64,000 nucleotides of DNA. Source: an uncultured bacterium. GTDB taxonomy: Bacteria > Acidobacteriota > Thermoanaerobaculia > Multivoradales > JAHZIX01. The notes below the pieces were generated by a model. The model ran no database searches. It was not told where the DNA came from and worked only from the letters and a program-made list of their open reading frames with translations. The stretch covers positions 32,001-96,000 of the forward strand of contig CBDUPA010000001.1 of assembly GCA_965368975.1 (NCBI GenBank). The letters run 5' to 3'. Position numbers and translations under genes: made by a program. This document shows positions 9,905 to 43,129 of the stretch, in pieces; positions within the stretch are counted from its first letter, which is position 1, and each line of letters starts with the position of its first letter.

Positions 9905-11890
9905 ATGCTCGCCAACACACCGGGATCCATTTTCTGCCAGGTTTGCGGAGCAGCCAATCCGGACGACGCGGAGTACTGCCTGCAATGCCAGCATCGCTTG
10001 CTGGTGCTTTCCGGTGCCGAAGAAGTGGACTTCGAGCCGGATGTCGCGGCGAGTGAAGAGACCAGTTTCGAAGAGCACCTGCTGGAGCGCATCTCCGTGC
10101 TCGAAGAGGTTGTCCGGCGCTCTGGCGAGACTCTACGCCAGTTGCTCGGTGCGCTGCGCAAGCAGGAACAGAACACGCTGGTGACCCAGACCGGGCTCAG
10201 CAGCCTGCTCGAACTGCTCGACCAGAAGGGCTTGGTGGCGCAGGAGAGTTGGAGCGAGCTGTGGGAAGCGCGCATGGACCAGCAGCTGCTGGCGCTCGAG
10301 CGACGCGACCGTTTCCTGGCCATCCGCGAGCGGGCAGCTGCGCTCTACCACGGTGGCCGTCGGCGCGAGTTCCAGCAACTGCTGTCTGAAGCCGAGATGG
10401 CCTTCTTCGCTCTCGACACCGACGCCGGTGTGCGGGCCCTCGAAGCCGCCTTCGAACTCGATCGCAACAACGACCCGCTGGCCTACTTCCTGGGTGAGGC
10501 AGCGTTCAATGACGGCGATGCTGAGCGTGCCCTGGCCTTCTTCCATCAGCTGCTGCAGGTGCGGCCCGACCACTACGAGGGTCTGGTCTACTGCGGTGTC
10601 ATCGAGTACGAGCGCGGTGCCCTCGAAGTCGCTGAGCAGTTGTTGCAGCGTGCGGTCGAACTCTACCCGCATTCCTTCCTGCCGCACTTCAGTCTCGGTG
10701 CCGTCTACGCTGGCTGCGGCAGGCTCACCGAGGCGGTCGATTGCCTGGAGCGGGCCATCCAACTCGACGCGGTGCCGCAGGCCTTCTATCTGCTCGGCAA
10801 CTGCTGCTATGAACTGGGCCGTCTGGGTGCCGCGATCCGGCACTTGCAGAAAGCGGTGCAACTCGATCCCGCGTTCGCGCAGGCCTACTACCTGTTGACG
10901 CTGGCCTACCTCGACCGTCGCTGGCACCGCAAAGCCATGGACGCGCTGCGCCGAGCGCAGGAGCTGTCGCCGAAGACCATCGGCGTGCGCTACCTGGATG
11001 GTGCCGAGGGCGGGCCGCTGCCACCGGTCGAAGGTGCCGCCAGTGCCTGGTACGACCAGGCTGAGAAGCTGGTGCGCCACGACAACCCGCGCGCCGCTTT
11101 CCAGTGCTACCGGGAAGCCCTGCTCCTGGAGCCCGACAACGCCACGTTGCTGTTGTCGTACGCGCGCTTGTGTCTGCGCCTCAACCGCAGCCGCGAGATC
11201 GAAGCCGTGGCTCGCCGTGTGCTCGACCTCGATCCAGACGACACGCTGCGCGCCACCGCCTGCGCCACCTTGATCGAAGCCTTGCGCTCCCAGGGGCGCT
11301 ACCGCGAGGGAAACCGCATCGGCCTGCGCCTGCTGAGCGAGGACAAACGCGAAGCCACATCCGCGAGCGCGGGATCGCCCCAAGAGACGGCACCCCAAGA
11401 GACGCCACCCCAAGAGACGTCGACCCAGCAGGAGTCGCCCCAGGATAGGCCGCCGCGAGACGTGCCCGGCCCGGATGCCGCCGACCTCTCGAGCGAGTCC
11501 GAACTCACCCGCACGGTCGCCTATTCCGAAGTCGCCTACAACCTGGCTGAGATGGAAGAAGACTTGGATCAGGCTCTCGACTTTGCCCGCCGCTCGGTCG
11601 AGCTATCGCCCGAAGCGCTCAAGGGCTTCCCGCTGGCTGCGCTCGGCTGGGTGCACTACAAGCGCAAGGAGTTCGACCAAGCCATCGACTGCCTGGCGCA
11701 GTCGACCGAACTCTCTCCGTCGCCGGCTGCCCTGACACACCTGGGCATGGCGCTACTGGCATCCGGTCAGCGAGAGCAAGCGCGCTCCGTGCTGGCGCGC
11801 GCGCGTTCCCTCGAAGAGCCTGAGACCCTGGAAGCGAGCGGCACGGAATCCGGTGTCGCCAGCCGCGTTCAGGATCTGCTGTCGCGCTGA
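9905..11890 (+). CDS. Zinc-ribbon + tetratricopeptide repeat protein
   Basis: CQVCGAAN...YCLQC zinc ribbon, coiled coil and many TPR-like helices; PQET repeat insertion near the C-terminus. Confidence 0.85.
   Translation: MLANTPGSIFCQVCGAANPDDAEYCLQCQHRLLVLSGAEEVDFEPDVAASEETSFEEHLLERISVLEEVVRRSGETLRQLLGALRKQEQNTLVTQTGLSSLLELLDQKGLVAQESWSELWEARMDQQLLALERRDRFLAIRERAAALYHGGRRREFQQLLSEAEMAFFALDTDAGVRALEAAFELDRNNDPLAYFLGEAAFNDGDAERALAFFHQLLQVRPDHYEGLVYCGVIEYERGALEVAEQLLQRAVELYPHSFLPHFSLGAVYAGCGRLTEAVDCLERAIQLDAVPQAFYLLGNCCYELGRLGAAIRHLQKAVQLDPAFAQAYYLLTLAYLDRRWHRKAMDALRRAQELSPKTIGVRYLDGAEGGPLPPVEGAASAWYDQAEKLVRHDNPRAAFQCYREALLLEPDNATLLLSYARLCLRLNRSREIEAVARRVLDLDPDDTLRATACATLIEALRSQGRYREGNRIGLRLLSEDKREATSASAGSPQETAPQETPPQETSTQQESPQDRPPRDVPGPDAADLSSESELTRTVAYSEVAYNLAEMEEDLDQALDFARRSVELSPEALKGFPLAALGWVHYKRKEFDQAIDCLAQSTELSPSPAALTHLGMALLASGQREQARSVLARARSLEEPETLEASGTESGVASRVQDLLSR
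11378..11465 (+). repeat. 15-nt tandem repeat (about 6 degenerate units) inside the TPR gene
   Basis: CAAGAGACG at 11381, 11396, 11411, degenerate copies at 11426, 11441, 11456; encodes PQETA-PQETP-PQETS-TQQES-PQDRP. Confidence 0.85.
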
Positions 11891-11894
11891 CCAG

Positions 11895-11933
11895 CTCTTC
11901 ACTGCAATTCTTCACTGCAACTCTTCACTGCGA
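11895..11933. repeat. 13-nt tandem repeat x3 across the bioY stop codon
   Basis: CTCTTCACTGCAA / TTCTTCACTGCAA / CTCTTCACTGCGA. Confidence 0.85.
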
Positions 11934-12487
11934 CGGGCCGCCCACCAGAGCAGTGCCGCCACGGCCAGGCTCTTGAGCGCCGCTCCCGGCAGGAACGGCA
12001 GCAGGCCGCCGTCGATCGCCCGCTGCCAGCCGGCGCTCTGCGCCAGCCACGGCAAGCCGGCAAGGAAGATGAACGCGTGGCAGATCAGCATCGCCGCCAG
12101 TGACATCCCGAAGCGTCGATTCCAGCCACGCTCGACCATCCGTCCAGCCAGCCAGGCGGCACCCAGGAAGCCGAGCAGGAAGCCGCCGGTCGGTCCCAGC
12201 AGGTGCTGCATGCCGGCACTGCCGTTGGCGAACACCGGCATACCGAAGGCCCCGGCCAGTAGGTAGATCACCACGCCCAGCGTGCCCCACACGGGGCCGA
12301 GGATGGCGCCGAAGAGCAGGACGAAGAACGTCTGTAGCGTCAACGGTACCGTCGTTCCGGGCAGCGGTAGCGCGAGCTGGGCTCCGATGGCGATGAACAA
12401 GGCGGCGCCGATGCTGAGGGCCAGCTTGCGGATGGGGTCGGCGGGCTCGGGTTCTCGGTAGGTGCTGTCCGGGGCGAGGTCGTTCAT
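11912..12487 (-). CDS. bioY: Biotin transporter BioY (ECF S component)
   Basis: VPLTLQT, YLLAGAFGMPVFA, GPTGGFLLGF, PFLPG motifs. Start ATG 12487. Confidence 0.93.
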   Translation of the reverse strand: MNDLAPDSTYREPEPADPIRKLALSIGAALFIAIGAQLALPLPGTTVPLTLQTFFVLLFGAILGPVWGTLGVVIYLLAGAFGMPVFANGSAGMQHLLGPTGGFLLGFLGAAWLAGRMVERGWNRRFGMSLAAMLICHAFIFLAGLPWLAQSAGWQRAIDGGLLPFLPGAALKSLAVAALLWWAARRSEELQ

Positions 12488-12577
12488 GGGGCAGAGTCTA
12501 GCGCAGGTGGTCGAGGGCGGCTTTGCGCTACACTCAGGCTCCTCTCGAGGACTTCCGGATTGACCGCCGTCACACCC

Positions 12578-15500
12578 ATGAGCCGAAGCCAGAAACCCGC
12601 GTTTTATCCGCTGTCGCCGCTGCAGCAGGGCATGTTGTTCCATGCCCTGGAAGCACCGGCCAGCGACGCCTATTTCGAGCAGAGTCCACTGTGGCTGGAC
12701 GGTGAGCTGGATCTGCGCGCGCTGCACCGAGCGTGGCAGGTGGTGGTGGACCGGCACGAGGTGCTACGCACGTCGTTTGTCTGGGGCAAGGTGCGCGAGC
12801 CGGTGCAGGTGGTGCAGCCGCGGCTGCGCTTGCCGATGGCGGTGATGGATCTGAGCGGTGTCGCGAACGTGGAGCCGGAAGTGCGCGGCGACGGTCCGGT
12901 GGCGGAGTTGCTACGCCAGGATCGGCTGCATCCGTTCGACCTGGGGCGCGCGCCGCTCTTGCGCCTGACAGTGCTGCGTCTGCACGCGCACAGCTGGGTC
13001 ATGGTCTGGTCGTGTCACCACATCCTGCTCGACGGCTGGTCACAGGCTTTGATCACGGCGGATCTCTTCCGCGCCTACACGATTCTGCAAGGTGCGAGGG
13101 ATGCTTCCGCGGCGGCGGCAGGTCAGCAGGTGGAGTCGGTACTCGGTCCTGCACCGCCGCCGTTTCGCGGCTACATAGCCTGGCTGCGCAAGCGGCCCAG
13201 GGAAGAGACCGAGGCCTATTGGCGTCAGCGCCTGGCCGGCTATGACGAGTCGGTCGCCTTGGCCTCGCTACTGCCCAAGAGCCCTCTACCCAAGAGTCCA
13301 CAGCCCAAGATCCCACCGACGACCGACGAGGACGTGGTGGGTGGCACTACAGTGCGTTTGCAGACGGCGCTATCGGCAGAGCTGGTCGCACGCCTGCAAG
13401 GCTACGTGCGCAGCCATGGCCTGACGCTCAACACCTTGTTTCAGGGGGCGCTGGCGCTGCTGCTGGCTCGGTATTCGGCACGGTCGGACGTCGCCTTCGG
13501 CATCGTGGTTGCCGGTCGACCGCCGCAGTTGCCGGGAGCCGAGCGCATGGTCGGTTTGTTCATCAACACGGTACCGCTGCGGGTCAGCACTGCCGGGGTG
13601 GCGCCTGGAGACGGAGGGCAGCCCAGCACCGCGGCGCTCGACTGGCTGCGCGAGCTGCACACCGAGGCGGGACGCCAGCGCGCCTTCGAGCACGCACCTC
13701 TGCTCGACGTGCAGCGCTGGAGCGATGTCCCTCCCGGCGGTCAGCTCTTCGACACCTTGCTGGCGTTCGAGAATTATCCGGTCGAGCAGCCGACGGGCAG
13801 TGAGGCGCTGCGCTTGCGCTGGCTGCCGTCGCCGAGTGGCACCAACTTTCCGCTGTCGCTGGTGGTGGTGCCGGGGGAGCAGATGTGGCTCAACGCCCAC
13901 TACGCCGGCGCCAGCCTCGATGCCACCGCCGTGCACCGGCTGGTGCGCCACCTGCGGACGCTGGTCGACGGGCTCGGCCGGGACGGTGCGCGCCTCGAGG
14001 CTCTGCCTCTGCTGAGCACGGCCGAACGGCACCAGCTGTGCGTCGAATGGACCGATGCGGCCAGTCCCTTTGCCGCCGCCGCGTCGCTGGCCGAACTGGC
14101 TGCCTTGCGTGTGCGCGCGCGGCCGGAGTCGGTGGCGGTGGTCTATGGTCGCCGGCACCTGAGCTACCGCGAGCTGGCGCGCCGCTCCGGGACCGTGGCG
14201 GCGCAGCTACAGCTGCACGGGATCCGTCGCGGCGACATCGTTGGGCTCTACTTGGAGCGCTCGCCGGAGTTGATCGTCGCGCTGTTGGCGATCCTGCGTG
14301 CCGGTGGCGCCTACCTGCCGCTCGACCTGGCCTATCCGGACGAGCGCGTCGCCTTCCTGCTCGCCGACGCCGGGGCGACTTCGGTGGTGACCGACGGTGC
14401 CCACGCCGAGAAGCTGCCTGCGCCCTGGGGCGGGCAACGTCTGTGCCTCGAAAACCTGCTGGCACCGGTAGCCCTGCCGGCTGCCCAGCGAGTGACGGAA
14501 GACGAGTTGCACGGTGACGACCTGGCGTACGTCATCTACACCTCCGGTTCGAGCGGCCGGCCGAAGGGGACCGCGGTACCGCAGCGAGCGGTGGTGCGAC
14601 TGATCCTGGGGCAACACCGGCCGAGCCAGGCCTACGGTCAGCTCGGGCCAGAGACGCGTTTCGGGCAGGTTGCCAACACCTCTTTCGACGCTGCCACCTA
14701 CGAGATCTGGGGCGCTCTGCTCAGCGGCGGCTGTCTGGTCGGTGTACCGCGTCGGGTCAGCCTGCAGCCGCGGCACCTGGGCCGCTTCCTGCGCCGCCGG
14801 CGCATCGACACGACTTTCATTACTGCTGCGCTCTTCGCCCAGACGGTGCAGGTCGATCCCTACGCGTTCAGCGGCATGCGTGACTTGCTGGTTGGCGGTG
14901 AGGCGGTCGATCCGGACGCCGCTCGACGTCTGCTCACCGGACCCGCGCCACCGCGCCGCCTGCTCAATGGCTACGGCCCGACCGAATGCACCACCTTCGC
15001 CGTCGTAGGGCAGATCGAGCCGCCGCCGGTGGGGGCCAAGTCGGTACCGCTGGGGCGCCCGATCGGCAATACCGATGTGCGGGTGCTGGACCGCGCTGGC
15101 GAGCCGGTGCCGGTTGGCGTCGCGGGGGAGCTGCGCCTCGGGGGGGCCGGTCTGGCCTGGGGCTACCTGGGACGCGCGGCGCTGACGGCCGAACGCTTTG
15201 TGCCCGCTGGTGAATGGCTCGCCGGAGGGTTGGTGGGACGAGGCCGACGCCTCTATCGCACGGGCGACTTGGTGCGCTGGTTGGGCGATGGTCGCCTCGA
15301 CTTTCTCGGCCGGCTCGACGATCAGGTCAAGCTGCGTGGCTACCGTATCGAGCCGGGGGAGATCGCGGCGCGGCTGCGCGAGCACGAGTCGGTGCGCGAC
15401 GCCGTTGTACGCCTGCTCCCTTCGGGCGAGGGCGAACGGCGGCTCGTGGCGTGGGTGATCCCGGCTCCTGGCGCCCACGGCGGTGTGCCCCCCCATCCAG

Positions 15501-34368: not shown

Positions 34369-34779
34369 TCAGCTGAGTCGCCCGCGGACGACCTGGACGA
34401 ATTGCAGAAGGTCGTCTAGTCGATGCTCCGCGATCGAACGCACGACATCGAGATTGACGTCGTCATAGCCGTGTACCAGGATGTTGCGAAAGCTGATCAT
34501 CTTGGCTAGGTCCTCGGCTTGCGAGGCGTCGAACCATCCTTCCTGCGCCAGCAGGCGGAACAGGTCGCGATTGCTTTCTGGCTGCCCGAGGTTGTCGTCA
34601 GACACGATGTGGGAAGCGATGTCCTGAACCGCCTGGATCGCCTTCTGCAGCATCCGTTCGACGAAACTGCGGTGTTCCAGGTCGTTCTCGATCGCCTCCG
34701 GGCGCAGACGCTGCCGCAGTTGCTCGACGTACGTCTCGATGCTGGCGAGTTTCTTGAGGACGAGTGAACGATCCGTCAT
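34369..34779 (-). CDS. hepT: HepT-like HEPN ribonuclease toxin (DUF86)
   Basis: RNILVHGY = RX4HXY motif; ATGA overlap with the upstream nucleotidyltransferase gene. Confidence 0.88.
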   Translation of the reverse strand: MTDRSLVLKKLASIETYVEQLRQRLRPEAIENDLEHRSFVERMLQKAIQAVQDIASHIVSDDNLGQPESNRDLFRLLAQEGWFDASQAEDLAKMISFRNILVHGYDDVNLDVVRSIAEHRLDDLLQFVQVVRGRLS

Positions 34780-35225
34780 CGCTCCGCCTCCGGCATCTTC
34801 CAACTGCGTCTGAGGATTGGTAGTGCATCCCAGTATTCGTTGCGCGCTCGGACTTCGAAGGCAATGCGGTGGCTGGGATTGGCTTCGACCAGCAAGATGC
34901 CATCGCGCAGAACACGAAACGCCAGGTCGGGCGAGGCAGTATTCAGTGTCACGATCTGGACTTCACGGTGGAGCAGTTCCTGCAGGTCGCTATCGAGGAG
35001 GAACGCCGGGTGATCGAGCGTCGAGGGCGGTGTCTCGGTGAACAAGACCGCCACGTCGACGTCACTGTGTGGCCGAGCGGTACCGCGGGCGAAGCTACCG
35101 AACAAGTAGACGGCATCGATACCGTCGTGGTGCTCTGTGAAGAAGGAACGCAGCGCATCGCGGACTTCAGCGGTCGTTGGGACCGGGGCAACTGTGGGAC
35201 GGGGTAGCGGAGCGACGCTGGCCAT
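34776..35225 (-). CDS. mntA: MntA-like minimal nucleotidyltransferase antitoxin
   Basis: YLFGSFARG...SDVDVAV (GSx10DxD); paired with the HEPN gene. Confidence 0.88.
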   Translation of the reverse strand: MASVAPLPRPTVAPVPTTAEVRDALRSFFTEHHDGIDAVYLFGSFARGTARPHSDVDVAVLFTETPPSTLDHPAFLLDSDLQELLHREVQIVTLNTASPDLAFRVLRDGILLVEANPSHRIAFEVRARNEYWDALPILRRSWKMPEAER

Positions 35226-35418: not shown

Positions 35419-37767
35419 TTGACGGTTCTAGCCTCTGAACACACCGAAAGGCAAGGTATCGCTCTCGCGATGTCGATCTTCGAGAAGGTCGGCTTTCTGT
35501 TCCGAGAGCTGAGGGACCACGACCACGGCATCGACGCGGAAGCCGAGCCGGTCGAAGGCGGCCAGGCGACCAGTCAGTTGATTCGACTGCAGGTCAAGGC
35601 GGGGCCGAGCTTTTTCCGGGAGCGAGCCGAGACCGGCTTTGTTTTCCGCTTCGACGACAAGCACCATCGGTACTGGATGAACCACGCCCTGCCGGTAGTT
35701 TTGTTGCTGTGTGACCTCGACCACGGCAAGGTGTACTGGCAGGAGGTTTCAGAGCAGACGGTCGTTTCTACCGGTAAGGGGTGGAAGGTCGTCGTCCCGA
35801 GAAGGCAGATCGTGGATGCTTCCTCCAGGGCGGCTCTGGTGAGGCTGGCGGCCAGGAAGTCGACGGAGAGTGAGTTGGAAGAGACGCCGACCGAGCTGGA
35901 GGAGCTGTACGAGAAGCGTGCCGAGGCTCTTGCCTGCGGCGATGACACCAGCCACCTCGACGCCGAGATCCTGGCGATCAAGCGCAGGAACCGCGCTGGT
36001 GGCAATCTGCACACCGGGGACCTGCTGGCAGGACGCTACAAGCTGCGTGGGGTCCTCGGCGCCGGTGGCTTCGCGACGGTGTGGCAGGCCTACGACAAGA
36101 AGGCGCGGTGTGTTGTCGCGGTCAAGGCGCTGCATGCGCAGTACGCCAAGGACAAGACGCGCCGTGATCGGTTTTTCCGTGGTGCGCGGCTGATGGCCGA
36201 GCTGGAGCATCCGGGCATCGTGCGTGTGCTGGAGCAGCAGCTCGACGACGACGGGCACCACTTCTTCGTCATGGAACACCTTTCCGGTGGGGACTTGCAC
36301 AAGGCGGTGCTGGCGAAGAAGGTGGCGCGCGAGCAGGCGATCGAGCTGGTAAGGAAAGCCGGAGAAGCTCTGGCCTACGCCCACAGCAAGGGCGTGATCC
36401 ATCGGGACGTCAAGCCGGCGAATATCCTGCTGGCTGGCGACGGCCAGCCGAAGCTGACGGACTTCGATCTCGTCCGGGCCCAGGACACCACGGGCGGTAC
36501 GCGCACGGGAGCGATGGGGACCTTCGTGTATGCGGCGCCGGAGCAGCTGGAAGACGCCAAGGCAGCGGACGAGCGCGCGGACGTGTTCGGCTTGGGGATG
36601 ACGCTGGTCTTCGCTCTGTACCGGAAGAAGCTTCCGCCGAAGGTGCTGCGTGATCCGGATTCCGTGGTCGATGATTTGCGCTGTTCGATGGCGATCAAAG
36701 GGGCCCTGAAGAAGGCCGTCGACTGGGAGCTGGAGCAGCGATGGGGGAGCGTGGACGCGTTCTTGGCGGCGCTTCCATGGCCTCCTGCTGTGCAGCAGCC
36801 AGAGCCGAGGAGCCGAGTGCGAGTTGCTGCGGCGGGGGAGCCGGCGGTGATCGCGACGGCAGGGGTGGCACCGGAGGCCGGTGCCGTCAAGGAAGGGCCG
36901 TTCGGGATGCGCTTCCGGTTCATCCCGGCCGGGACCTACACCGCTGGCAGTCCTCAAGACGAGCCCGGAAGGCGCAGCCAGGAGTGGCCGCAGCACCCCG
37001 TCCAGCTGACGCGCGGCTTCTGGCTCGCCGAGACGCCGGTGACGCAGGCGCAGTGGTGCCGGCTGGTGTCGCGGAATCCGTCAGAGTTCCAGAAAGACGC
37101 CGAGAACCGGCCGGTCGAGCAGGTCAGCTGGTTGGACGCAGTCGCCTTCGCCAACCTCCTGTCGCAGCAGGCAGGGTTCCGGCCGTGCTACAAGCTGACC
37201 GAAAGGCATGGCGAGATCGGCAAGGATCTTGAGTGCGATAGCGTCGAGATCCTCGACTCTTGGGTGGGTGGCTTCCGCCTCCCCACGGAAGCGGAATGGG
37301 AGATTGCGGCCAGGGCTGGCACGAAGACGGCTGTCTATACCGGAGGTCTGACGCTGGAAGGCGAGAAGGGAGAGCGAGCCGAGGAGCTGGACGCCATCGC
37401 CTGGTATTCCGGGAACACTGGCTATGGAACGGAGCCCGTGAAGCAGAAGCTGGCGAACGCGTGGGGTCTCCATGACATGCTGGGCAACGTCTGGGAGTGG
37501 TGCTGGGATCTGCCGGGGCACGCCGAGACGGAGCAGCTGCGCGTCGATCCACGCGGAGGTAGCCAGGGCTCGGACCGGGTCGTCCGTGGCGGTTCCTGGT
37601 TCGGCCGCGCGCGCGACGTGCGCGCCGCGTACCGCGACTGGCACCACCCGGGCAGTCGCAGCCTCAACCTGGGCGTCCGCCTGGCCCAAGATCAGGAACA
37701 GCCAGCTGGGCCGGAGGCTCAGCCGGCTCCAGGACAAGACGGGGAGGCCGTGGCAAGGGCCCGATAG
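35419..37767 (+). CDS. Multidomain protein: DUF4365 (restriction-endonuclease-like) + Ser/Thr kinase + FGE-sulfatase (C-type lectin fold)
   Basis: N-term FRE..DHGIDAEAE..LQVKA; kinase GAGGFATV, VAVK, HRDVKPAN, DFD, YAAPE; C-term ETPVTQ, RPVEQVSW, RLPTEAEWE, NAWGLHDMLGNVWEW, RVVRGGSW. TTG start. Confidence 0.85.
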   Translation: MTVLASEHTERQGIALAMSIFEKVGFLFRELRDHDHGIDAEAEPVEGGQATSQLIRLQVKAGPSFFRERAETGFVFRFDDKHHRYWMNHALPVVLLLCDLDHGKVYWQEVSEQTVVSTGKGWKVVVPRRQIVDASSRAALVRLAARKSTESELEETPTELEELYEKRAEALACGDDTSHLDAEILAIKRRNRAGGNLHTGDLLAGRYKLRGVLGAGGFATVWQAYDKKARCVVAVKALHAQYAKDKTRRDRFFRGARLMAELEHPGIVRVLEQQLDDDGHHFFVMEHLSGGDLHKAVLAKKVAREQAIELVRKAGEALAYAHSKGVIHRDVKPANILLAGDGQPKLTDFDLVRAQDTTGGTRTGAMGTFVYAAPEQLEDAKAADERADVFGLGMTLVFALYRKKLPPKVLRDPDSVVDDLRCSMAIKGALKKAVDWELEQRWGSVDAFLAALPWPPAVQQPEPRSRVRVAAAGEPAVIATAGVAPEAGAVKEGPFGMRFRFIPAGTYTAGSPQDEPGRRSQEWPQHPVQLTRGFWLAETPVTQAQWCRLVSRNPSEFQKDAENRPVEQVSWLDAVAFANLLSQQAGFRPCYKLTERHGEIGKDLECDSVEILDSWVGGFRLPTEAEWEIAARAGTKTAVYTGGLTLEGEKGERAEELDAIAWYSGNTGYGTEPVKQKLANAWGLHDMLGNVWEWCWDLPGHAETEQLRVDPRGGSQGSDRVVRGGSWFGRARDVRAAYRDWHHPGSRSLNLGVRLAQDQEQPAGPEAQPAPGQDGEAVARAR

Positions 37768-37856: not shown

Positions 37857-39125
37857 TCAGGTGTGGTGGAAGTCGAACTTGCGGCGCGTGACGACCAGCT
37901 GGTCCTTGGCCACCTCGTGGCGTACGTAGCCGAGCAAGTGGAAGAGTTCGACGGCGAACCAGCGGGCGACCTTGAGGTCGACCAGCAGGCTGCCTTCGAG
38001 TTCGGGGTGCTTGCGCACGCCAGGCAGCCAGTGAGCGATGCGGCCGACGCGGAGCCGGCGCATGACCTCGGAGAGCCGGAGCCAGGCAGGGCTGAACGGG
38101 CGCACGAGGAAGAAGCCGTCGGAACCCTGCTTCTGGTAGAGCGGCATCAGGATGCGGCCGCTCTCCGGACTGAGCACGTCACCGTGCTTGTCGACGGCCA
38201 GCGTTTCGCCCTCGGTGACGTAGTCGAAGCTCTTGTAGCCGAGGTTCATCACGAAGCCGTCACCCGGGCGCACGACGTGACGGTAGCGGGTCTCGCAGAT
38301 GCGTGGCAGGCCGCTGGAGACCTGGTTGAGCAGGGTGCGGCCGGTGGCGGCTTGACGGATCGGCTTGGGTAGCACGCCGGAGGCTTCGAGCGCGATCCAG
38401 ATCGCGGCTTCGATGCGGTCGACGGCTTCGGTGGCCTGGTGCTGGCCGCCTTCGAAGCCGATCGCGACGTGACCGAGTGTACACACGTAGTCGGTGAGCG
38501 TGCCTTTGAGTTCCTCTTCCAGGCCGACGATGATCGGCGCTGGGAAGTGCAGTGCGAAGGCGCGGTTGGGCAGAGTGTCGGCCATGGTGCCGAAGGCGAC
38601 GCTCTTGGCCGAGGTGGTGTGGAAGTCGATCAGGAAGACGGGGCCACGGGCGCGTTCGAAGATGGATTCGAGTTCACGTCGGAGCTCGTCGAGCTGACGA
38701 TCTTCGGGCACCAGACTGTCGGCCAGGGCGCCGGCGCGGCTGGCGACCACGCGGTCGCCGTGCCAGTGGCGGTTGAGGTCGGCTTCCAGATAGCGGTGAC
38801 CAGCCGCCAGTGCTTCCAGGTTGCCGCGCAGACCGACGAACTCGCCGTGCAGGTTCTGAGTCAGCTCGTCGGAGTTCTCGTCGAGCGTCTCGAAAACCCG
38901 CTCGAGTGCTGCGACGCCAGCATTCTCGTTGCCATGCAGGCCCCCGACGCATACCAGGGTGGCGCCGGCTTCATCGCCGACGAGATGTCCGATGAGGCGT
39001 TGCAAGGGGTGATGGGTTTCTTGTCGTGGGGTCGTGGGAGTCGCCGCGCGGGAGAACTCGGGGAGCTCGGGGTCGGCGACTTCGAGGTTGTGGCCAGGGG
39101 CCGGTCCTACATCGGATAAGTCCAT
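37857..39125 (-). CDS. Succinylglutamate desuccinylase/aspartoacylase family (M14) hydrolase
   Basis: GGLHGNE, DLNR, IDFHTTS, FEGGQH motifs. Confidence 0.85.
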   Translation of the reverse strand: MDLSDVGPAPGHNLEVADPELPEFSRAATPTTPRQETHHPLQRLIGHLVGDEAGATLVCVGGLHGNENAGVAALERVFETLDENSDELTQNLHGEFVGLRGNLEALAAGHRYLEADLNRHWHGDRVVASRAGALADSLVPEDRQLDELRRELESIFERARGPVFLIDFHTTSAKSVAFGTMADTLPNRAFALHFPAPIIVGLEEELKGTLTDYVCTLGHVAIGFEGGQHQATEAVDRIEAAIWIALEASGVLPKPIRQAATGRTLLNQVSSGLPRICETRYRHVVRPGDGFVMNLGYKSFDYVTEGETLAVDKHGDVLSPESGRILMPLYQKQGSDGFFLVRPFSPAWLRLSEVMRRLRVGRIAHWLPGVRKHPELEGSLLVDLKVARWFAVELFHLLGYVRHEVAKDQLVVTRRKFDFHHT

Positions 39126-41832: not shown

Positions 41833-42301
41833 AGTTCAGCGGGCAGCAGGCGGGCAGCGCATCAACCCTCGTCACCACTCTACGCAAGCTGAGCGAACGG
41901 GGCAAGCCCTGGAGGTCGCCTCTTACTGCGGTGGCTACGTGGGGGGTGATGCTTTCTGTATGTTCAAGTTTCAATAAGGGAGTTGTTGTTTCCTCCGGGT
42001 CTGCTATAGTTCATGGTAGACCAAAGCTTGAGGAATCCCCCCCTTCCATGCACGCACTGGTCATTCTTTGTATTTGACGATCGCTGAGAAAAACCAACGG
42101 AGATGGCGGTCCGCGGCCTCTTCCGGTATCGCTGGACTACTTTGTCCGAGAAGCGAGAAGCGCCCGTGTCCGGCAAGCACCTACACGGTCGACGGTGATC
42201 GATCATGTGCATCTTTCTATGTCGTCTGCTGTTACTCAGAAGTTCGCGAGGACTCGTGGCCGGTTGGGCCAGGGCTCGCGGTCGAAAGAAAGGGGTCCGA
42301 T

Positions 42302-43129
42302 GTGAGTGGTGGAAACACAACAGAGGTTCGAGCTCAGAAGGGGCGGCTGGGCTGCCCACCGGCGACTCCGCCCAAGGCCTACGAGCCGCCGCGGCAGTCC
42401 GAGATCTTCTTCGACGCCAAGGCGCCGTCGCACATGCATGAGCCGACGGGGATCGAGATGGTCTACATCCCCGGCGGTGTCTACACGATTGGTACCAACG
42501 ATCTCTCGGAGTGGGAGCGCCCGGCGCACCAAGAGACACTCGAATCGTTGTGGCTCGCCAAGTATCCGGTGACGCGCGAGCAGTATGCTCGCTTCCTGGC
42601 TGCCAATCCACGGCAGGCGCGGCCGTCAGGCTGGAACGCCACCAAGGACCCGCACCAGGCCGTGGTGGGCGTCAGTTGGGAGGATGCGCGCGACTTCTGT
42701 GATTGGGCGGGCCTGCGCTTGCCCCGGGAAAGTGAGTGGGAAGCCGCGGCGCGCGGACCCGAAGGTCGCGATTATCCGTGGGGCAACGCGGCGCCGGCTG
42801 CCTGGTTGGCCTGTTTCGCCGAGAACTGGCGCACCGGCATCGCCCCGAACGTCGATGCTCTGCCGACCGGCGAAGGTCCCTTCGGCACCATGGCACAGGC
42901 CGGACACGTCTGGGAATGGTGCGCGGACGTCTGGGACGCGAAGGCCTATCAGCACCGTGACATTTCCCTGGACCGCGATCCCCACGTCACCGACATCGAC
43001 CTGCGGCGCTTCGTGCTGCGCGGCGGTGCTTGGCTGAGTCCGGCGCGCCACTTGCGCTCAGCGTACCGCAGCTGCGGTGGCGCCAAGCTGCGCGAGGACA
43101 GCATCGGGTTCCGGGTGGCCTGCAGCTGA
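42302..43129 (+). CDS. FGE-sulfatase (SUMF1/EgtB/PvdO-family) domain protein
   Basis: MVYIPGG, KYPVT, VSWEDA, RLPRESEWE, GHVWEWC, LRGGAW, IGFRV. Start uncertain (GTG 42302 after a purine-rich RBS; the ORF extends to 42068). Confidence 0.8.
   Translation: MSGGNTTEVRAQKGRLGCPPATPPKAYEPPRQSEIFFDAKAPSHMHEPTGIEMVYIPGGVYTIGTNDLSEWERPAHQETLESLWLAKYPVTREQYARFLAANPRQARPSGWNATKDPHQAVVGVSWEDARDFCDWAGLRLPRESEWEAAARGPEGRDYPWGNAAPAAWLACFAENWRTGIAPNVDALPTGEGPFGTMAQAGHVWEWCADVWDAKAYQHRDISLDRDPHVTDIDLRRFVLRGGAWLSPARHLRSAYRSCGGAKLREDSIGFRVACS

Follow-up and report, generated by a model that had tools for sequence, protein, structure and literature searches.

Several described systems share parts of the gene considered here. 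DREN domains of SPARDA are reported to be inert as monomers and to become indiscriminate DNA and RNA nucleases once tetramerised; the isolated domain is an inactive monomer, filament-induced tetramerisation activates it, and helix α1 forms one of the tetramer interfaces (PMC12205087). In ternary and STAND conflict systems, FGS domains have been proposed to act as intracellular invader sensors (Kaur et al. 2020, 2021 eLife), and FGE-sulfatase-like sensors are listed on STAND proteins (Nature 2026, PMC13581612). Kinases are described there as N-terminal effectors of STAND-FGS proteins and not as a central module (Kaur 2021), and TIR and Pkinase are among the domains of diversity-generating retroelement (DGR) targets with C-type-lectin-fold (CLec) domains (Doré et al.). 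The gene in question lies in a 64,000-nucleotide stretch from an uncultured bacterium of the Acidobacteriota (assembly GCA_965368975.1, contig CBDUPA010000001.1, positions 32,001 to 96,000; hereafter the window) and joins in one chain a DUF4365 domain of the DREN type, a Hanks-type kinase and a formylglycine-generating enzyme (FGE)-sulfatase domain. It is a nuclease-armed variant of a large, computationally recognised family, and the gene is real and intact.

With a probability of roughly 0.6, the gene encodes a cytoplasmic single-chain sensor, switch and effector of the [effector]-kinase-FGE/CLec family, in which ligand sensing, kinase-mediated self-association and nuclease activation would result in abortive infection. 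The FGE/C-type-lectin-fold domain would bind a ligand, most likely an invader molecule. The kinase module, composed of a helical hairpin and a kinase with DFD in place of DFG and Gly in place of the αC Glu, would thereupon self-associate and trans-phosphorylate its Thr-rich loop; the dimer or higher oligomer would gather the N-terminal DREN-type domains and switch the nuclease on, and degradation of nucleic acid would halt or kill the infected cell. TIR effectors need oligomerisation to act. Since TIR and DREN effectors share this requirement, ligand-induced self-association is the most economical model, and by analogy with SPARDA the putative nuclease most likely needs oligomerisation, not phosphorylation alone. 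All steps from ligand to nuclease activity, oligomerisation and phosphorylation included, are inferred, as is the immune role. An earlier interpretation made from the letters alone (the sequence-only reading) had proposed ligand binding, then autophosphorylation, then DNA cleavage or abortive infection; its domains, folds, catalytic residues and syntax are borne out, and the order of events remains conjectural.

Domain architecture and the N-terminal nuclease-type domain

The gene is a single long open reading frame (ORF; Table 1) with a TTG start. Pfam recognises DUF4365 (PF14280) at residues 10-143 (E 2.1e-32; 112.5 bits against a cut-off of 24.3; profile positions 1-138 of 139), Pkinase at residues 207-428 (E 3.6e-41) and FGE-sulfatase (PF03781) at residues 501-756 (E 6.1e-49), and all three matches are far above chance level. 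The three-domain architecture of the sequence-only reading is recovered in full, and every motif it quoted occurs in the translation: DHGIDAEAE at 35-43, LQVK at 57-60, VAVK at 233-236, HRD at 328-330, DFD at 348-350 and APE at 373-375. The N-terminal domain and residues 151-782, folded as separate AF2 models, reach a mean pLDDT of 94 and 88, respectively.

By sequence, profile and predicted fold, the N-terminal domain is a DREN-type PD-(D/E)xK nuclease domain. The PADLOC Aga_REase profile matches it at E 6.3e-26, and a PDB sequence search with residues 1-155 returns the DREN-APAZ chain of NbaSPARDA (9jsb, E 4.7e-6) and two further SPARDA proteins. The 12 best Foldseek matches of its AF2 model (59 sequences, mean pLDDT 94.3) are all SPARDA chains (TMq 0.66-0.79). 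The best VIA-align match is also a SPARDA protein (Z 19.0, root-mean-square deviation 2.5 Å over 148 residues), and the six top rows are SPARDA throughout (Z 14.0-19.0), the next family being Hjc resolvases at Z of about 11. The nuclease fold, on which the sequence-only reading depended, is thus present in the model according to AF2, Foldseek and VIA-align.

Alignment with 9jsb places D39, E43, Q58 and K60 at D41, E45, Q60 and K62 of NbaSPARDA, where D41A and Q60A are reported to abolish the collateral nuclease and K62A to impair it (Cell Research 2025, PMC12205087). In the 59-sequence alignment, G37, D39 and Q58 are invariant and E43 and K60 at least 90% conserved; the catalytic residue set of the putative nuclease is intact. 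An exhaustive search finds 2,758 proteins related to DUF4365, against 2 in a word-index search with residues 1-160, which is uninformative on rarity. In 35 relatives scanned from the 150 best (31 of at least 498 aa, 4 shorter), DUF4365 lies N-terminal to NACHT, NB-ARC, nSTAND5, WD40, TPR, PIN-TPR-GreABC and Schlafen-helicase modules.

The database gene model (P0002, 765 aa) begins at an internal ATG at 35470 (M18), a start that would lose most of helix α1 of the nuclease-type domain (residues 5-23 in the AF2 model). Because homologues of this domain align from query residues 2-10 onward and helix α1 occupies residues 5-23, the TTG at 35419 is the likelier start.

Table 1. Positions of the gene, its domains and residues, and nearby genes in the window
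Feature	Position	Strand	Basis
Whole gene, 782 codons plus stop	35419..37767	+	ORF list, Pfam
DUF4365/DREN-type nuclease domain (predicted), residues 1-150	35419..35868	+	Pfam, PADLOC, PDB sequence match, AF2, Foldseek, VIA
Putative catalytic codon D39	35533-35535	+	PDB alignment
Putative catalytic codon E43	35545-35547	+	PDB alignment
Putative catalytic codon Q58	35590-35592	+	PDB alignment
Putative catalytic codon K60	35596-35598	+	PDB alignment
Pre-kinase helical hairpin, residues 151-200	35869..36018	+	AF2, family conservation
Hanks-type Ser/Thr kinase, residues 201-457	36019..36789	+	Pfam, PDB alignment, MAFFT, Foldseek
Kinase K236	36124-36126	+	
Kinase G255	36181-36183	+	
Kinase HRD, residues 328-330	36400-36408	+	
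Kinase DFD, residues 348-350	36460-36468	+	
Pro/Ala-rich interdomain linker, residues 458-495	36790..36903	+	pLDDT <50 at model residues 308-331
FGE-sulfatase/C-type-lectin-fold domain, residues 496-760	36904..37698	+	Pfam, PDB match, Foldseek
Low-complexity C-terminal tail, residues 761-782, and stop	37699..37767	+	pLDDT 35-50
HepT-like RNase and MNT-type nucleotidyltransferase pair	34369-35225	-	
AstE_AspA-like gene	37857-39125		
353-aa ORF with FGE-sulfatase	42068-43129	+	Pfam

The kinase module and its family

Of 8,000 candidates scored in a whole-protein search, at least 3,042 are relatives, and domains were counted by hand over the 120 best of the 3,042. The kinase-FGE core is preceded by TIR_2 in 65 of these 120, by CHAT in 6, by PNP_UDP_1 in 3, and by Caspase, Mrr_cat and EAL in 2 each; several carry PF199xx families. 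Ten scanned examples place EAD1, EAD2, EAD5, EAD8, EAD9, Mrr_cat, PNP_UDP_1, SIR2_2 or DUF4062 N-terminal to the kinase and FGE last, and three listed relatives join the same kinase to other C-termini (e.g., TPR in P0045). Named relatives include Acidobacteriota metagenome-assembled genomes (MAGs) and Sorangium, and databases annotate its TIR/SEFIR-kinase-FGE proteins as 'SUMF1/EgtB/PvdO family nonheme iron enzyme' or 'bifunctional serine/threonine-protein kinase/formylglycine-generating enzyme'. Judged by these interchangeable domains, the N-terminal position is an effector slot, and the gene is a member of the DFD clade of a [variable effector or EAD adaptor]-kinase-FGE family. The order of effector, switch and C-terminal sensor matches known conflict systems, in agreement with the proposal of the sequence-only reading that FGE/CLec domains serve as intracellular sensors; the defence phenotype that went with the proposal is conjectural.

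The helical linker noted earlier from sequence is borne out by the AF2 model of residues 151-782, which has helices at 159-172 and 178-192 (block pLDDT 82-95) that form a hairpin. Family members keep it regardless of the effector in front (R189, R192, L197, G200, L203 and R206 are nearly invariant), and it is 53% identical to that of the in-genome paralogue L013; the hairpin is part of the kinase module and not a loose linker. The kinase resembles PknA, PknB and StkP in sequence (E about 1e-35) and fold (Foldseek TMt about 0.8). Its motifs GAGGFATV, K236, HRD, N335, D348 and APE are present, and a Thr-rich activation loop lies at 356-364. The description of a Hanks kinase with intact VAVK, HRD and APE and with DFD instead of DFG stands, with one addition: G255 aligns with the αC Glu of PknA, and the αC Glu is lost as well.

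Both departures are common to the relatives. A pattern search over P0001 and the 119 other listed relatives gives DFD in 109, DYG in 3, mis-hits in 3 and no HRD match in 5. After MAFFT alignment of the 115 relatives with an HRD match, the αC and DFG positions read G/F/D in 112 and E/Y/G in 3, with no mixed case; the VAIK Lys, HRD, the catalytic-loop Asn and the metal-binding Asp of DFD are found in 115/115, and the activation-loop motif DTTGGTRTG is strongly conserved. DFD with Gly also occurs in the five other in-genome kinase-FGE paralogues and in P0272. On these alignments, DFD is a clade-wide hallmark covarying with the αC Gly, not a lesion or decay. The kinase, which keeps every phosphotransfer residue but the αC Glu, is read here as being under purifying selection with a rearranged regulatory core.

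MNK1/2 carry DFD and are active, the Asp favouring an autoinhibited conformation (PMC1821047, PMC3326643), so DFD does not imply a dead enzyme. Hypothetically, D350 takes over the role of the lost αC Glu as the partner of K236; such a relocated acid is suggested by the complete split of the 115 sequences between G/F/D and E/Y/G. A bolder proposal, tentative and on the whole unlikely, is that DFD/αC-Gly kinases constitute a dedicated immune 'switch kinase' clade, in which the acidic partner of the Lys has moved to DFG+2 and the active site is formed upon sensor-driven pairing. The gene would then be an independently arisen counterpart of IRE1 and RNase L with a SPARDA-type collateral nuclease, and its family, with no fewer than 3,042 members, would amount to a kinase-based analogue of NLR/STAND immunity.

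The kinase might itself be the effector, acting on host or phage proteins as reported for Stk2 and PD-T4-6, with DUF4365 as a DNA-binding or sensing module. Invariance of all phosphotransfer residues in the clade fits such a role, as do strong matches of the PADLOC PD-T4-6, mad6 and Stk2 models to the kinase domain (down to 1.3e-55). However, these matches span only the generic kinase fold (e.g., positions 4-208 of 292), and any Hanks kinase would give them; NCBIfam MAD6 reaches 123 bits, short of its cut-off of 460. With TIR, SIR2, caspase, CHAT, PNP and EAD adaptors filling the N-terminal slot interchangeably and the nuclease catalytic residues intact, this assignment of roles is improbable.

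Distant kinase-FGE loci of other phyla, which have no effector domain, differ in the kinase: DFG is present in 12/14 kinase ORFs, the 2 others being truncated, and the αC-motif Glu in 13/14 (by eye, no formal alignment). Some of these genes, with an N-terminal kinase and, in L034, PASTA repeats before FGE, bring to mind a receptor kinase with an extracellular FGE domain, which for the studied gene is hardly credible. The gene and six in-genome relatives have DFD and Gly instead, and the protein holds no hydrophobic segment: its top Kyte-Doolittle mean over a 19-residue window is 1.13, the usual cut-off for a membrane segment being 1.6. The interdomain linker, rejected as a membrane helix (hydropathy 1.12), contains Glu and Pro, is predicted to be disordered and has low occupancy in the family alignment; the C-terminal tail has an occupancy of 0.12-0.31. 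Since the maximum hydropathy is so low, no membrane helix is expected, as the sequence-only reading had stated, and hydropathy supports a cytoplasmic protein.

Among 11 distant kinase-FGE loci, a reverse-transcriptase ORF occurs in two (L034 and L057) and tandem kinase-FGE arrays in several. An Ignavibacteriaceae locus (L059:183-8386) has four tandem kinase genes, FGE being present in three, and after them a gene with FGE alone. The neighbours of a kinase-PASTA-FGE gene from a Gemmatimonadota MAG (L034:125-6877) are a reverse transcriptase, a PASTA-FGE gene and an HRDC protein. Kinases of both loci are of the canonical DFG/αC-Glu type.

Sensor domain, origin of the fusion and genomic setting

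The C-terminal domain has TvpA (PDB ID: 2y3c) as its best PDB match (E 2.3e-33; 33% identity over 287 columns; Foldseek TMt 0.76), and FGE structures match at E 6e-20 to 4e-17. Aligned with the FGEs 5nxl and 6s07, the two Cys after the GGS motif, which we take to be the catalytic pair, correspond to Gly and Ala with a 3-residue gap. As the Cys pair is replaced, the domain is no FGE enzyme, and catalysis of the FGE, EgtB or PvdO kind was discarded as its role; the alignment supports a non-enzymatic domain of the ligand-binding type, a putative sensor. Its most variable ten-residue block over 117 family members (741-750, entropy 2.94) is bracketed by the conserved RxAxR and LGFR motifs close to the domain's C-terminal end, presumably the position where DGR variable regions sit. 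The gene was nevertheless rejected as a DGR target. No reverse transcriptase lies near it, the 5 RVT_1 matches in the genome all being on other contigs or far away, and own-genome blastn (word 11, E 1e-3) yields paralogous coding matches only, with no template-like copy of the 3' end.

The 7.1 Mb genome holds 28 FGE-sulfatase matches; 21 ORFs from 20 FGE loci were scanned, five short frames being left out. Kinase-FGE genes number six, comprising the studied gene and five others: L005 (TIR), L006, L009 and L012 (SEFIR/TIR), and L013. NACHT or AAA_16 is joined to FGE in eight (L003, L008, L011, L016, L017, L018, L019 and L020), two of them with SIR2 and one with a calcineurin-like phosphoesterase (Metallophos), and the effector set seen before kinase-FGE also precedes NACHT-FGE in the same genome. 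The remaining scanned ORFs comprise one each of Caspase-FGE (L010), CHAT-FGE (L021), DinB-FGE (EgtB-like, L015) and Peptidase S9-FGE (L022), and four FGE ORFs whose N-terminus matches no assigned family (L004, L007 and two ORFs of L014). Across the in-genome paralogues, the FGE domain is 28-56% identical to that of the studied gene, compared with 53-64% for the kinase.

Three of the five RVT_1 matches lie between pairs of long NACHT-FGE genes, at 88.9-97.2 kb of contig 16, 135.4-144.6 kb of contig 9 and 2.0-11.5 kb of contig 15. These loci look like DGRs diversifying NLR-like sensors; on contig 16, a 127-aa frame with the last 44 FGE-profile positions (92580-92702) just before the reverse transcriptase is a candidate template repeat. 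On contig 2 (343.7-350.3 kb), a SEFIR/TIR-kinase-FGE gene (L009) and a calcineurin-like-phosphoesterase-NACHT-FGE gene (L003) stand tail to tail with 664 bp between them. P0272, a 901-aa paralogue at about 360 kb of contig 1, combines SEFIR/TIR and a DFD/Gly kinase with an AstE_AspA-type domain that replaces FGE. A second DUF4365 gene is found on contig 6 (L106:727-2049, minus strand). It encodes 440 aa, of which the C-terminal 260 have no Pfam match, and is 47% identical to the N-terminal domain studied here; its GC content of 0.50 in a 0.65 genome makes horizontal acquisition probable. Next to it lie an MFS transporter and a DUF5615 protein and no Argonaute.

The kinase-FGE part of the gene has a close relative in the same genome. 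Residues 151-782 are 60% identical to P0004, the highest value among 116 relatives, the others reaching at most 53%; P0004 is the 565-aa product of L013 and P0037 the 839-aa product of L012, both on contig 12, as judged by matching lengths. In a FastTree phylogeny (LG+gamma, 567 columns, 117 sequences, midpoint root), the closest neighbour of the gene is P0004 (support 0.95), P0037 joins next (support 0.91), and nodes further down have no support. DNA similarity to L013 begins at gene nucleotide 467 (residue 156), and the junction lies exactly at the family-wide module boundary. A separate TIR ORF of 175 aa stands before L013 and overlaps the kinase frame at its end (L107:10181-10708 and 10894-12591, plus strand), which makes L013 a frameshifted TIR-kinase-FGE gene or else a form split into two genes. 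As the tree neighbours carry TIR-type domains, DUF4365 probably replaced TIR after duplication of a TIR/SEFIR-kinase-FGE gene. The GC content is 0.607 in the DUF4365 part, 0.653 in the kinase and 0.674 in the FGE domain, with 0.654 for the genome, and GC at third codon positions (GC3) is 0.79-0.83, close to that of neighbouring genes. Contig 12 carries three kinase-FGE genes within 14 kb.

No second DUF4365-kinase-FGE protein is among the matches listed in any search. The window's own protein is the only one with this architecture in the 120 listed rows of the whole-protein search and the only one with PF14280 and PF00069 among 115 matches to residues 30-300. None of the 35 scanned DUF4365 relatives carries a kinase or FGE; none of the 80 best loci from 185,579 species genomes matches query residues before 172, and none of 11 confirmed metagenome loci matches before residue 153. 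Forty genomes of the same family or order (5 and 35) hold no orthologue, the best other match being 35% identical. In a phylum sample, 15/400 other genomes (a count that includes the unpublished genome G189) have DUF4365; in 4 cases the frame is 600 aa or longer, and none of these contains a kinase or FGE. The ESM Atlas returns generic kinase-FGE clusters only, none with DUF4365.

No DUF4365 with a kinase or FGE was found in the literature searched, although supplementary tables may list such architectures; the statement of the sequence-only reading that the combination is not a characterised system agrees with this. A preprint atlas of bacterial Ser/Thr kinases describes Proteo1, a family with FGE-sulfatase, and a pseudokinase family with DYD, and the portion available mentions no DFD/Gly clade. 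Rather than a separate system, the combination represents a single exchange of effector within a large family known by computation.

Uniqueness among the matches listed in every database searched would also suit a recent functionless or decaying chimera from recombination between paralogues, the more so as the closest paralogue is itself split or frameshifted between TIR and kinase. Against this stand a frame open over 782 codons, intact hallmarks of all three domains, confident structural models, a GC3 near that of the neighbours and the placement of the junction at a module boundary, and such a chimera is a quite improbable explanation.

The nearest upstream genes are an overlapping toxin-antitoxin-like pair of a HepT-like RNase (144 aa) and an MNT-type nucleotidyltransferase (149 aa), divergent from the kinase gene and 193 bp away, with a GC content of 0.60-0.62 against 0.654 for the genome. 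The AstE_AspA-like gene just downstream is conserved in 5/5 family relatives. In 5/5 same-family genomes, the arginine deiminase and AstE-like orthologues lie on separate contigs, so no empty-site comparison can be made. The locus has no flanking repeats of note and no promoter-like site; terminator-like sites number 5 against 2.0 expected, which is uninformative. Among listed sequencing runs, the stretch is represented in two DNA runs of a single study, by shares of 0.15 and 0.05, and in no RNA run. Located 4.3 kb downstream, past the AstE-like gene, ClpA and ClpS, a 353-aa ORF matches FGE-sulfatase at residues 130-351 (E 1.3e-43) and no other Pfam family.

Housekeeping flanks without adjacent phage or mobile element genes raise the alternative of a regulated nuclease for the cell's own biology (developmental or kin-directed death, DNA turnover, or stress signalling), with a lectin-like domain sensing an endogenous metabolite or glycan. 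Conflict-system families of this kind are reported to be enriched in socially living or multicellular bacteria (Kaur 2020, 2021), which would agree with it. The effectors of the family (TIR, SIR2, caspase, nucleases and EADs) are, on the other hand, typical of immune systems, the sensor domains are the fastest-diverging part among paralogues, and the position of sister NACHT-FGE genes beside DGR-like reverse transcriptases fits recognition of variable targets. An own-cell role is therefore rather improbable.

Significance and relation to known systems

Several observations weigh against the preferred model of a sensor-switched nuclease in abortive infection. Loss of the αC Glu removes the canonical Lys-Glu bridge and makes the catalytic competence of the kinase uncertain. 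One of four alignable tetramer-interface residues of NbaSPARDA is kept (E45, as E43), while Q29, D31 and R33 align to L27, R29 and L31. The gene is a singleton, perhaps a young chimera still untried by selection, and the DGR-like elements of the genome do not diversify it. Its flanks, besides HepT/MNT, are housekeeping genes (arginine deiminase, AstE-like, ClpA/ClpS), and synteny is not kept in relatives, so an inserted island cannot be delimited. Neighbours of the 11 distant kinase-FGE loci show no consistent defence genes, these loci being of the DFG/αC-Glu type and poor proxies for the DFD clade. Finally, the literature search found no experimentally tested member of the effector-kinase-FGE family.

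If the sensor-switched model is true, the gene would be a one-gene test case for a kinase replacing the NTPase switch of NLR-like receptors, with a nuclease read-out that is easily assayed and an effector whose activation rules are well defined by the 2025-2026 SPARDA structures. The DREN collateral nuclease would be a portable effector, found behind Argonautes, STAND NTPases and now a kinase. The covariation of DFD and αC Gly, for which no description was found in the portions of the literature searched, is a testable structural hypothesis on kinase regulation. The family is large (at least 3,042 relatives), and the same searches found no experimental characterisation of it.

Individual parts of the protein have known counterparts. 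TvpA from Treponema denticola, a surface lipoprotein, is the closest solved relative of the C-terminal domain, and both are non-enzymatic; TvpA is DGR-diversified, whereas no DGR targets the studied gene and its domain is predicted to be cytoplasmic by hydropathy. MNK1 and MNK2 are an example of DFD in a catalytically competent kinase, where the Asp is described as biasing the motif towards an autoinhibited 'out' state; they belong to an unrelated lineage, and in the studied clade the αC Gly covaries with DFD. In IRE1 and RNase L, one chain contains a ligand sensor, a dimerising or oligomerising kinase fold and an assembly-dependent nuclease. The likeness is a functional analogy only: the domain order is reversed, the nuclease is KEN and not PD-(D/E)xK, and homology is limited to the kinase fold.

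STAND/NLR-like proteins with FGE sensors (Kaur 2021; PMC13581612), including the eight in-genome NACHT-FGE genes, have the same order of effector, switch and sensor and overlapping effectors. They differ in having a central P-loop NTPase in place of the Hanks-type kinase, and the studied gene has no link to a DGR. Pfam and NCBIfam scans of the protein gave no STAND NTPase family, apart from a PLuB helicase-like line on the kinase region (E 3.1e-6).

The TIR/SEFIR-kinase-FGE proteins, which include direct in-genome paralogues and share a homologous hairpin-kinase-FGE core (42-60% identity) and the DFD/Gly signature, have a TIR/SEFIR effector where the studied gene has a DREN-type nuclease domain. 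Mrr_cat-kinase-FGE proteins (P0043, 763 aa; P0053, 811 aa) place another PD-(D/E)xK nuclease in the same slot before the same core; their PF04471 domain differs from PF14280, and the fusions are independent and not closest in the tree.

The effector itself is that of SPARDA (9jsb, 9jt2, 9qcc and 9vx6), with the DUF4365/DREN domain matched at Z 14-19 and D, E, Q and K conserved. A SPARDA system was rejected for the locus, residue 150 being followed by a kinase and FGE and not by APAZ or a prokaryotic Argonaute, and the neighbours being HepT, MNT and the AstE-like gene. SPARDA has APAZ and an Argonaute partner and is guided by nucleic acid, whereas here a lectin-fold sensor would be coupled through a kinase module, and the tetramer-interface residues of SPARDA are mostly not conserved. 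By analogy, both may nevertheless share one logic, a nuclease that stays idle in the monomer until sensor-driven assembly activates it.

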